From: a virus
Taxonomy: Duplodnaviria > Caudoviricetes
Direction: 5' to 3' (one strand)
IMG/VR virus record: IMGVR_UViG_3300025637_000039
Span: 1 to 30,936 of that record
Length of the DNA: 30,936 nucleotides
How positions within the stretch are numbered: position 1 is the first letter of the stretch; every line of letters starts with the position of its first letter. Shown here piece after piece: positions 778-30,936 of this stretch. Position numbers and translations under genes: made by a program. Under the pieces are notes generated by a model. That model was not told the origin of the DNA. It made no database searches and saw only the letters and a program-made list of their open reading frames with translations.

Positions 778-2981
778 TGTATAAGCAAACATTATACCAT
801 GTTGTCAAAGATGCTATAAAACCTAAAGTTTTAAGTAGACTAAATAGATATAAGAAATGGGAGTACGGTTACAATAAAGAATATGATTTTGTTGTAATAA
901 GTAAAACCGGGGAAATAGGAGAGATATATAATATACAAGGATTAAGAATAGCTTTACCTAAAGAAAAAGATATAAAAGAGTTTTCAACTAATAAATGGGA
1001 ACATACAGAATATCCTAAAGAATTAAAAAGAATTAAATCAGTATTTGACTGGGATGAATATCCCGTTGAATTTAAAGAAAAATGGTATGACTATATTGAC
1101 ACAGAGTTTAAAAGGCGTGAAGATGGTTTTTGGTTTATTAATAAAGACAAGCCTACTTATATTACTGGTACTAACTACATGTACCTGCAGTGGTCCAAGA
1201 TTGACGTTGGGCAGCCAGACTTTAGGGAATCAAACAGATTATTCTATTTATTCTGGGAAGGCTGTAAGGCAGATCAACGGTGTTACGGAATGTGTTATCT
1301 TAAGAACAGACGGTCAGGTTTCTCTTTCATGGCATCAGGCGAAACGGTTAATCAGGCAACAATATCCACAGATTCAAGATTTGGCATTTTATCAAAGTCC
1401 GGGCCAGACGCCAAAAAGATGTTTACTGATAAGGTCGTACCCATTTCAGTTAATTACCCCTTCTTCTTCAAACCAATCCAGGACGGTATGGACAGGCCGA
1501 AGACAGAGCTCGCGTACAGGGTACCGGCGTCGAAGTTTACCAGAAAGAAACTTGACACCAACGAGAAACTTAAGGAGATCTCCGGGCTCGACACCACGAT
1601 CGACTGGAAGAACACAGGGGACAACTCGTACGACGGTGAAAAATTAAAACTATTAGTACACGATGAAAGTGGCAAGTGGGAAAAACCCACAAATATATTA
1701 AACAACTGGAGGGTAACTAAAACTTGTTTAAGATTAGGATCTAGAATTATAGGCAAGTGTATGATGGGATCAACATCAAACGCATTAGACAAAGGAGGGG
1801 CTAACTACAAGAAATTATATTATGATTCAGACGTTAACAAAAGAAACGCCAATGGACAGACTCGTTCAGGACTCTATTCTTTGTTCATACCTATGGAATG
1901 GAACTACGAAGGATACATTGATTCTTATGGCTTACCTGTATTCAATACACCAAAAAAACCGGTTGAAGGACCTCAAGGAGATTTAATTGATACGGGCGTA
2001 ATAGAGTATTGGCAAAACGAAGTTGAGGGGTTGAAAGAAGATCAAGACGGTCTTAATGAATTTTATCGTCAGTTTCCAAGAACAGTAGAACATGCTTTCA
2101 GAGACGAAGCTAAAGAATCTTTATTTAACCTAGCTAAAATATATGAGCAAATAGATTATAATGCTGATTTAAAAAATACCGCTGTTATAACTACAGGTAG
2201 TTTTCAATGGCAAGATGGTGTTAAAGATTCTAGAGTTATATTTATACCAAATAAAGATGGTAGATTCAAAGTGTCTTGGGTGCCACCAATTGAGCTGCAA
2301 AACCGAATGATAATTAAAAATGGTAAGAAATATCCAGGAAACGAGCATTGCGGCGCTTTTGGGTGTGATAGTTATGATATATCAGGTACTGTAGATGGAA
2401 GAGGATCTAATGGCTCTTTGCATGGCTTAACAAAATTTAGTATGGAAAATGTTCCTCCGGATCATTTCTTTTTAGAATATATAGCAAGACCACAAACTGC
2501 AGAAATATTTTTTGAAGATGTATTGATGGCTTGCGTATTTTATGGTATGCCAATATTAGCCGAGAATAATAAGCCTAGATTACTGTATCATTTTAAAAGA
2601 AGAGGCTATAGGGGATACTCTATGAATAGACCTGATAAATTAAAGCTTTCCGTAACAGAAAGAGAAATAGGTGGAATACCTAATTCAAGTGAAGATATAA
2701 AACAAGCACATGCGGCAGCTATAGAAACATACATAAATACCAGAGTAGGATTACTAGAAACAGGGTATGGAAATATGTATTTTCAAAGAACATTAGAGGA
2801 TTGGGCAAGATTTAATATAAACAATAGAACGAAGCATGATGCCTCTATAAGTTCAGGATTAGCATTAATGGCTTGCAATAAAAATAGATATATACCTAGA
2901 GCTAAAGTAGAATATAAAGCTATAGATTTAGGTATTAAACGATACGACAATAAAGGCGGTATGTCTAAAATAATAAAATAA
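777..2981 (+). CDS. terL: Terminase large subunit (crAss-like type)
   Basis: 734 aa. Walker A-like LKNRRSGFSF, Walker B LLVHDESGKW, motif III GSTSN, and RNase H-like nuclease motifs FGCDSYD, ILAENNK and KHDASIS. Followed by the portal. Confidence 0.93.
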   Translation: MYKQTLYHVVKDAIKPKVLSRLNRYKKWEYGYNKEYDFVVISKTGEIGEIYNIQGLRIALPKEKDIKEFSTNKWEHTEYPKELKRIKSVFDWDEYPVEFKEKWYDYIDTEFKRREDGFWFINKDKPTYITGTNYMYLQWSKIDVGQPDFRESNRLFYLFWEGCKADQRCYGMCYLKNRRSGFSFMASGETVNQATISTDSRFGILSKSGPDAKKMFTDKVVPISVNYPFFFKPIQDGMDRPKTELAYRVPASKFTRKKLDTNEKLKEISGLDTTIDWKNTGDNSYDGEKLKLLVHDESGKWEKPTNILNNWRVTKTCLRLGSRIIGKCMMGSTSNALDKGGANYKKLYYDSDVNKRNANGQTRSGLYSLFIPMEWNYEGYIDSYGLPVFNTPKKPVEGPQGDLIDTGVIEYWQNEVEGLKEDQDGLNEFYRQFPRTVEHAFRDEAKESLFNLAKIYEQIDYNADLKNTAVITTGSFQWQDGVKDSRVIFIPNKDGRFKVSWVPPIELQNRMIIKNGKKYPGNEHCGAFGCDSYDISGTVDGRGSNGSLHGLTKFSMENVPPDHFFLEYIARPQTAEIFFEDVLMACVFYGMPILAENNKPRLLYHFKRRGYRGYSMNRPDKLKLSVTEREIGGIPNSSEDIKQAHAAAIETYINTRVGLLETGYGNMYFQRTLEDWARFNINNRTKHDASISSGLALMACNKNRYIPRAKVEYKAIDLGIKRYDNKGGMSKIIK
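1123..1647 (+). CDS. Overprinted +1-frame ORF inside terL, lipoprotein-like signal peptide (candidate o-spanin or envelope lipoprotein)
   Basis: The frame is open from 1045 to 1647. ATG at 1123 has A at -3 and TTTAAAA at -16..-10. N-terminus MVFGLLIKTSLLILLVLTT-C (Cys at 1180). TerL codons avoid NTA before purines throughout, and GC rises locally. Confidence 0.65.
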   Translation: MVFGLLIKTSLLILLVLTTCTCSGPRLTLGSQTLGNQTDYSIYSGKAVRQINGVTECVILRTDGQVSLSWHQAKRLIRQQYPQIQDLAFYQSPGQTPKRCLLIRSYPFQLITPSSSNQSRTVWTGRRQSSRTGYRRRSLPERNLTPTRNLRRSPGSTPRSTGRTQGTTRTTVKN

Positions 2982-29913: not shown

Positions 29914-29945
29914 AAAAGGGCCCTCAATACGAGAGCCCTTTTTTT
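29914..29945. terminator. Bidirectional intrinsic terminator between convergent modules
   Basis: AAAAGGGC-CCTC-AATAC-GAGA-GCCC-TTTTTTT, with T runs on both strands, located between converging genes. Confidence 0.8.
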
Positions 29946-29976: not shown

Positions 29977-30936
29977 TTATCCATCGCACGCTAAACAATC
30001 TTCACTCATAGCTTTCTGCGCTATATCGCCACGCAAAACAGATTCTGTTCTAGTATAATACAAAGTCTTAACACCTTTCTTCCAGGCATCAAAGTGAACT
30101 TTGTTCAACCATTTAGGTGTTGCTTCAGAAGGAAATGCTAAATTCAAACTAACTGATTGATCTACATATTCCTGCCTAAGACCTGCTTGATTAACTAACT
30201 CCAATTGATTGATCTCTTTAAAGGTTTTAAAAACTTCCTTGGCGGGTATGTCATGAGCCAGGGTAATACCATCAAGCTCACTAATGTTTTGAACACTACC
30301 ACCATCAGCCAGTATTTTATCCCATGTTTCATTATTATTAATTTTTAATTTTCTTAACAGCTTTACTAGCGTCGGGTTTTTCCTAATGAAAGTCCCTTTC
30401 GCACTTTGCTCTGTAAAAACATTTGCAGCCCACGGCTCAATACCCGGTGAAACATTACCGCTAAGCTTACTATTAGAAACAGTAGGAGCAATAGCACGGA
30501 GATGAGTATTACGCATACCGGTACCAATACACCATAAAGGCTCTCCATAAATTTCCGCAAGATCTCTTGAGGCTCTTTCACTTTCGATTTTAATTTGTGA
30601 AAATATTTTCCTAGTCTCAAACTGAGCAAGTAAACCTTCAAAAGGTAATCCCTTTTCTTGGAGATATGTGTGCCATCCAAGTACACCCAATCCGAGCGCT
30701 CTTCCTTTTTGAGCAGAACGAATGGCATTTTCAAAACCTCTAAGTCCTTTTGCTCTTTGAATAAATTCCTCCATAACCCCATCAAGAAACCACGTAGCGT
30801 GGTATATAAGGTTAGTGTCTTTCCATTCTTCATATTTAGCTAAGTTTAATGATGATAGACAGCAAACAAAGCTGTGGTTCTCATCTGTTGTTAATGTTAT
30901 TTCTGAACATATATTAGTCATATGTACTTTTAGTCC
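29977..30936 (-). CDS. nrdA: Ribonucleotide reductase class I alpha subunit (5'-truncated by window edge)
   Basis: The frame is open to the window edge (GLKVHMTNICSEI). Contains catalytic NxCxE, VCCLSSLNL, AIAPTVSNS, GIEP, DQSVSLN, the KTLYY tyrosine pair and C-terminal CLACDG. Confidence 0.93.
   Translation of the reverse strand, partial: GLKVHMTNICSEITLTTDENHSFVCCLSSLNLAKYEEWKDTNLIYHATWFLDGVMEEFIQRAKGLRGFENAIRSAQKGRALGLGVLGWHTYLQEKGLPFEGLLAQFETRKIFSQIKIESERASRDLAEIYGEPLWCIGTGMRNTHLRAIAPTVSNSKLSGNVSPGIEPWAANVFTEQSAKGTFIRKNPTLVKLLRKLKINNNETWDKILADGGSVQNISELDGITLAHDIPAKEVFKTFKEINQLELVNQAGLRQEYVDQSVSLNLAFPSEATPKWLNKVHFDAWKKGVKTLYYTRTESVLRGDIAQKAMSEDCLACDG
30366..30833 (-). CDS. Overprinted +1-frame ORF inside nrdA, basic protein with a long hydrophobic segment
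   Basis: 155 stop-free codons on the same strand as nrdA. Start context TTAAACTTAGCTAAAT-ATG. nrdA uses CTT/ATT/GTT wherever NTA would create a stop. Hydrophobic run at aa ~99-128. Confidence 0.55.
   Translation of the reverse strand: MKNGKTLTLYTTLRGFLMGLWRNLFKEQKDLEVLKMPFVLLKKEERSDWVYLDGTHISKKRDYLLKVYLLSLRLGKYFHKLKSKVKEPQEILRKFMESLYGVLVPVCVILISVLLLLLFLIVSLAVMFHRVLSRGLQMFLQSKVRKGLSLGKTRR

Follow-up and report, generated by a model that had tools for sequence, protein, structure and literature searches.

A +1 reading frame nested in the ribonucleotide reductase gene nrdA of a likely flavobacterial phage is kept open among relatives and probably encodes an inner-membrane protein

The locus and its nested frame

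The window, by which we mean the whole stretch of 30,936 nucleotides analysed here, is a 30.9-kb fragment of a marine tailed phage. Genes for terminase, portal, crAss-type muzzle proteins and an M15 endolysin lie on its plus strand, and its minus strand carries the last 319 codons of nrdA, which encodes ribonucleotide reductase alpha (29977..30936, minus strand; PF02867 at E 2.8e-52; phrog_84) and is cut by the window end. NrdA residues are numbered by the 572-aa protein of a relative, L001, that is 99% identical; the window covers residues 254-572. Between nrdA and the convergent late genes is a strong hairpin with A/T runs on both flanks (29914..29942; -18.9 kcal/mol, z -5.6), likely a two-way terminator. 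Among the terminase matches in annotated phage records, 86 of 87 are named for Flavobacterium, Cellulophaga, Tenacibaculum or Maribacter, so a flavobacterial host is likely; the elemo phages among these matches show 45% identity, and the best match, at 64%, comes from an uncultured record. Contigs of relatives that are at least 90% complete measure 58-72 kb. In the genomes that we fetched, nrdA is on the primase strand, opposite the strand of terminase and holin. In many relatives a hydrophobic gene of about 88 aa with no family match overlaps the nrdA start codon by its end (L001 1961-2242).

Nested in nrdA, on the same strand, is a +1 open reading frame of 155 aa, here called ORF C, which runs from an ATG at 30833 to a TAG at 30366 (30366..30833, minus strand; nrdA codons 288-443), as a preliminary description of this DNA had reported. 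None of the 17 junctions within it at which a +1 stop could be made (16 with Leu, Ile or Val and one with Met, each before a purine) uses the stop-making codon, compared with 6/6 ahead of ORF C and 12/24 at or past its end; the avoidance of NTA before purines inside the frame and the stops flanking it, both noted in that description, are thus borne out. A codon-shuffle null had been proposed as a check, and we found that a frame of this length is rare under each null applied. A run of at least 157 codons arose in 0/5,000 synonymous permutations within nrdA, in 0/5,000 resamplings with late-gene codon usage and in 1/5,000 with nrdA's own usage, and codon-order permutation reproduced the length of ORF C in 0/20,000; synonymous and codon-order nulls are the two kinds described in passages of PMC6188560. 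An ATG-started ORF of at least 155 codons in any of the five alternative frames appeared in 0.16-0.28% of trials. The frame is real and not a product of chance. Its translation is basic (30 K+R, 11 D+E), and the 19-residue hydropathy exceeds 2.2 in windows that begin at residues 97-113 and peaks at 3.23, which agrees with the basic product and hydrophobic run first described.

Conservation of the frame and of its hydrophobic segment

In a first scan we picked 80 viral loci on NrdA similarity alone (82-99%). Over codons 288-412, 69 of the 80 are free of +1 stops, five are open only from codon 359, two have one stop and four are closed throughout. Two more scans, seeded with one closed and one short-form gene, brought the set to 119 distinct nrdA genes, window included: 80 long-form (stop-free over codons 288-412), 33 short-form (open only from codon 359), two with one stop and four closed. 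The preliminary description had proposed that a nested gene would be in doubt if relatives carried +1 stops here; most close relatives have none.

We thinned the long-form genes to 24 with less than 60% third-position identity in the nrdA tail. In these, Leu, Ile and Val codons before a purine make a stop in 0/321 cases inside the frame and in 221/482 in the tail, although the first figure is partly so by construction, as the group is defined by openness, and the unbiased evidence is the 69/80 together with the sharp shared edges. Codons of the same type end in A before a pyrimidine in 121/302 cases. Among eight thinned short-form genes, stops occupy 49/64 junctions in codons 288-358 and 0/50 in codons 359-412. 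Divergence at four-fold sites of the nrdA tail is 0.595, i.e. synonymous sites are well diverged, and the portal, GroEL and major capsid genes of 18-20 genomes showed no stop-depleted stretch.

Among nrdA genes of less than 79% identity that span the region, 18 of 18 are closed, including those of phi14:2, immuto, S-TIM5, a pelagiphage and bacteria; at 80-81% identity five are closed, one is open and one has one stop. The uniform closure of the distant genes indicates that ORF C is younger than NrdA and confined to one clade. In a midpoint-rooted FastTree phylogeny, long forms occur also among the short-form branches. Two other nrdA genes have +1 runs of their own: Flavobacterium phage MaF61 nrdA (L436, 47% identity) has a mildly hydrophobic 88-codon run at codons 374-462, the same place as ORF C, and L437 nrdA has hydrophobic runs of 124 and 69 codons elsewhere in the gene.

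The preliminary description had cautioned that T-ending codons bias +1 frames towards hydrophobic residues. For each gene we calculated the +1 hydropathy to be expected with its NrdA sequence, the codon usage in those parts of nrdA that bear no overlap, and no stop. Over the 19 codons from codon 385, long forms have a mean hydropathy of 2.47 vs 0.71 expected (z >1.64 in 89% of 80) and short forms 2.06 vs 0.76 (z >1.64 in 82% of 33), whereas the closed genes, a control group of only four close genes, have 1.27 vs 0.73 (z >1.64 in 0/4). The run in the long forms thus exceeds what NrdA and codon usage would give, which answers the caution. The excess is limited to two adjacent windows of the 55 along nrdA and marks a selected hydrophobic segment, predicted to form a single transmembrane helix (nrdA codons 385-413; 30458..30542, minus strand). 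Purines fill 7% of its four-fold third positions vs 42% in the tail, and its four-fold divergence is 0.317 vs 0.595. We found no conserved RNA fold over the segment (median z 0.15, 30 genes), which rules out RNA structure as the cause of the constraint.

It is scarcely credible, given these results, that chance, codon bias or a constraint on the nucleic acid other than protein coding accounts for the frame. Passages of PMC8227390 indicate that +1 frames of T-ending genes are hydrophobic by default, and the relatives compared here share ancestry; whether a stop is avoided, however, depends on which base comes next, and the avoidance ends sharply at conserved borders, is maintained where synonymous divergence is near saturation and is not seen in the control genes. 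Stop avoidance, start-codon retention and hydrophobic excess are signs of purifying selection in the second frame, and on these comparative signs we regard frame C as kept open by selection.

The stretch ahead of the helix is basic (median net +6), and in 76 of the 80 long forms codons 388-411 encode no more than one charged residue; an N-in, single-pass protein is therefore predicted. The helix would occupy residues 98-126. ORF C ends at 127-159 aa, most often at 131 (42/79), and in 45 of 79 long forms at 127-131 aa, no more than about six residues past the helix; as the end varies so, the tail behind the helix appears to be dispensable too. AlphaFold2 models of 79 sequences have two long helices (4-45 and 58-154) and no packed fold (mean pLDDT 77, pTM 0.31). 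The working part of the protein would be the hydrophobic run.

Start codons and neighbouring frames in nrdA

The start codon of ORF C and an A-rich stretch upstream of it (30831..30848, minus strand) lie behind two near-invariant +1 stops, at nrdA codons 283 and 285. The first 71 codons of the frame (30621..30833, minus strand) are stop-free yet hardly constrained in sequence: four-fold divergence in codons 288-358 is 0.563, nearly that of the tail. The corresponding 71 residues are missing in 33 of the 119 genes, the short forms, which have 3-8 stops there. At codon 288, ATG is kept by 78 of the 80 long-form genes but by 13 of the 33 short-form ones; at codon 359 all 33 short forms have ATG and 70 of 80 long forms TTG, as does the window (30618..30620, minus strand), where the start context at this position is poor. 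All four closed genes carry ATG at both codons.

Ranked against 9,889 out-of-frame ATGs, the context of the codon-288 start reaches the 90th percentile; its score is 0.69 vs a median of 3.99 for ordinary genes. Short forms share the A at -3, -12 and -13 of this start. The A at -3 is present, as the preliminary description had stated, but it does not serve as evidence for a start, because the NrdA protein imposes it, as it does the other A residues of the context; 30 of 33 relatives without the long ORF share the A at -3. According to PMC6847099, initiation in Bacteroidetes does without a Shine-Dalgarno sequence and is favoured by A at -3; the NrdA sequence may thus have supplied a usable start here by accident. 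A sigma-70 promoter scan gave two sites vs 3.6 expected, with a model that does not represent Bacteroidota promoters. In four marine metatranscriptome runs of one study, 93-95% of the words were present, as contigs only, which is silent on expression.

Three +1 frames lie in tandem in nrdA, and ORF C is the last of them. The other two lie upstream, outside the window, and were seen in relatives. Frame A (L001 2252-2545; nrdA codons about 3-100) encodes 97 aa with a hydrophobic C-terminus and is open in 62 of the 73 first-scan loci that cover it. Frame B (L001 2645-3007; codons 135-254) encodes 120 aa, soluble, is open in 73 of 78 first-scan loci, keeps its ATG in 95 of 95 open genes and reaches somewhat more distant relatives than does ORF C. 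That the three frames tile most of nrdA, that the N-terminal part of ORF C is open yet unconstrained and that frame B and the short form have weak start contexts would all fit a frame kept open for the act of translation itself, with ribosomes in +1 tuning NrdA, or a frameshift that yields a membrane-anchored, truncated NrdA. We consider this improbable: start-codon selection tracks ORF C, the near-invariant stops at codons 283 and 285 lie just ahead of it, and regulation by translation alone needs no hydrophobic run.

Homologues, lysis genes and the possible role of ORF C

The ORF C protein of the window matched 0 Pfam and 0 PHROG families. Searches of Pfam, PHROGs and PDB gave only scattered weak matches for ORF C (best PDB E 0.16); just one of 79 members matched a holin or spanin family, at E 0.06, and no named exclusion family was matched in Pfam or PHROGs. 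ESM Atlas returned nothing usable for the whole protein or for residues 72-155. Homologue searches gave 21 matches with the single sequence and 30 with a profile, which, judged on their ends and lengths, look like the same frame or NrdA-chimeric calls; neither search found a free-standing homologue. Database proteins P0013, P0018-P0022 and P0029-P0032 hop between the NrdA frame and ORF C and are probably gene-caller or sequencing artefacts at the overlap.

The preliminary description had proposed a cryptic inner-membrane protein, naming holin or antiholin, i-spanin and exclusion factor as candidates. Its general claim is well supported, as the frame is open across diverged relatives and the hydrophobic run exceeds expectation. 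Holins have at least one transmembrane helix and are expressed late with the lysis genes; i-spanins have an N-terminal helix followed by a long periplasmic domain, with the gene for an o-spanin lipoprotein nested or adjacent. ORF C has one predicted helix with basic flanks, by hydropathy prediction only. Its strand is opposite that of the holin and does not place it with the late lysis genes, timing here being read from gene order. Of 20 genomes, 18 encode a separate holin (GTA_holin_3TM / phrog_3427) on the strand of terminase, and in all 18 of these nrdA is on the other strand. With this holin present, and with next to no family match for ORF C, the holin part of the proposal does not hold up well; the i-spanin is a misfit, as the helix is near the C-terminus with a short, variable tail behind it. 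We thus judge it very unlikely that ORF C is the phage's holin or i-spanin.

Ordinary genes of the fetched genomes were screened by script for possible spanins, and no widespread family of lipoproteins or of proteins with an N-terminal helix emerged. The sole lipoprotein-like frame that we saw is a second nested +1 ORF of the window, inside the gene for the terminase large subunit (1045..1647, plus strand), 29 kb away from ORF C and on the other strand. In 58 of 80 relatives this frame is free of stops across TerL codons 112-220; it has a basic N-region, a hydrophobic stretch and a Cys, from which it could encode an o-spanin-like protein. The first Cys was discarded as evidence, since TerL forces it and it is present in 22 of 22 closed genes. 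A further +1 run of 65-80 codons at terminase codons 338-403 (about 1790-1985, plus strand) recurs in most fetched genomes.

An accessory role in lysis, either as an antiholin that delays the separate holin or as a single-helix lytic peptide like phiX174 E or leviviral Sgl, has more in its favour. The origin and build of ORF C match those of known lytic overprinted genes, a +1 frame with a Leu-rich helix. The L protein of MS2, with a dispensable basic N-terminus followed by a hydrophobic C-terminus, is another protein that ORF C resembles. Moreover, ordinary genes supply no widespread spanin-like family, while terminase hides a lipoprotein-like frame. On the other hand, ORF C is on the replication strand, far from holin, endolysin and terminase, and these phages own a holin and often a recognisable endolysin, as in the M15 endolysin of the window. 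Of the two genomes without a detected holin, one is 73% complete and the other (G004) has ORF C closed, so that this one case shows no trade-off between the two. We regard such a role as possible but unlikely. A sole lysis gene of the Sgl or MS2 L kind was rejected, given the holin in 18 of 20 genomes and the M15 endolysin in the window.

In the passages of PMC8227390 that concern it, phiX174 E, nested in D, is like ORF C a de novo frame in an essential gene, in which third-position T of the old frame yields a Leu-rich transmembrane segment; unlike ORF C, it alone provides lysis for its small ssDNA phage, whereas ORF C lies in the gene of a metabolic enzyme, as one of three tandem frames, in a 60-70 kb tailed phage with a holin. 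The leviviral Sgl genes in rep, as described in parts of PMC7693330, resemble ORF C in that they are small and +1 (21 of 33 active Sgl genes are in the +1 frame of rep), have a predicted helix, lack homologues and are of recent origin. They differ in location, being found for the most part where Rep is divergent, and in that assays have shown them to be lytic, whereas ORF C lies over highly conserved NrdA and is known from sequence alone; the same source reports no effect in E. coli for 178 of 293 Sgl candidates predicted to have a helix. By the features tested, ORF C is outside the phiX174 E and Sgl lysis families.

Among tailed dsDNA phages, lambda Rz1 in Rz and T7 18.7 in 18.5 are fully nested +1 envelope genes. 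Unlike ORF C, they encode lipoproteins nested in their partner spanin within a lysis cassette; ORF C lacks a lipoprotein signal at its N-terminus and sits in a replication gene, and the terminase frame is closer to Rz1 and 18.7.

We conclude that ORF C probably encodes a membrane protein that acts on the inner membrane of the infected cell. It is very likely a real, translated gene and, if so, its product would with similar assurance be inserted into the membrane. Given both, opinion is evenly balanced on a role in exclusion or host control, which is suggested by location and architecture. As a whole reading, we tentatively prefer that of an inner-membrane factor with a single helix, produced along with the replication genes, whose task would most likely be exclusion or host control and not that of a holin. 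Translation would start at the internal A-rich ATG, as Bacteroidota ribosomes need no Shine-Dalgarno sequence, and the first 71 residues may serve mainly to reach a usable start. The basic N-terminal part would remain in the cytoplasm, and the one C-terminal helix, as the working part, would put a de novo protein into the host inner membrane. There it may act on a membrane protein during the replication phase, a timing suggested by the gene order and strand of nrdA; target and role are guesses.

Nested frames in other genes and their meaning

We surveyed +1 runs in 42 gene families present in at least eight genomes, using the 20 fetched genomes and the window. Runs of at least 80 codons concentrate in nrdA (21/21), terminase (21/24 gene pieces) and primase-helicase (18/22). 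The primase-helicase gene (G001:C1:59697-61418) has two nested +1 frames, one near codons 11-93 and another, which contains a Leu-rich stretch, near codons 250-380. In nrdB, an inner frame of 64-68 codons with two hydrophobic stretches covers codons 116-184 in 16 of 20 genomes (G002:C1:10542-11510), and a 3'-end frame runs from about codon 257 across the stop in 20 of 20 genomes, with stop-making junctions used in 0/137 cases. It is conceivable, if speculative, that the RNR operon of an abundant marine flavobacterial clade conceals five de novo +1 genes as a cassette (nrdB with two and nrdA tiled by three; hydrophobic segments in four of the five), whose products would work jointly on the host membrane while replication is under way, and that the long, short and closed states of ORF C are snapshots of gene birth.

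Long same-strand nested genes are textbook in tiny phages and in Rz/Rz1. In a mainly open-access literature searched for overprinting, for nrdA, for crAss-like and flavobacterial phages and for embedded lysis genes, we found no report of nested genes in phage nrdA; the term 'overlap' is absent from the passages available of a review on Crassvirales (PMC10136315) and of a paper on flavobacterial phages (PMC8776804). What sets ORF C apart is that it lies over highly conserved sequence of RNR, which is often used as a marker gene, and that its phage has genome space to spare. Selection on it is strong enough for its putative working part, one helix, to be mapped by comparison of sequences, and its natural long, short and closed versions would allow de novo gene birth to be compared among relatives. 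Gene callers miss ORF C or join it to NrdA, and the synonymous sites of such nrdA genes are not neutral.
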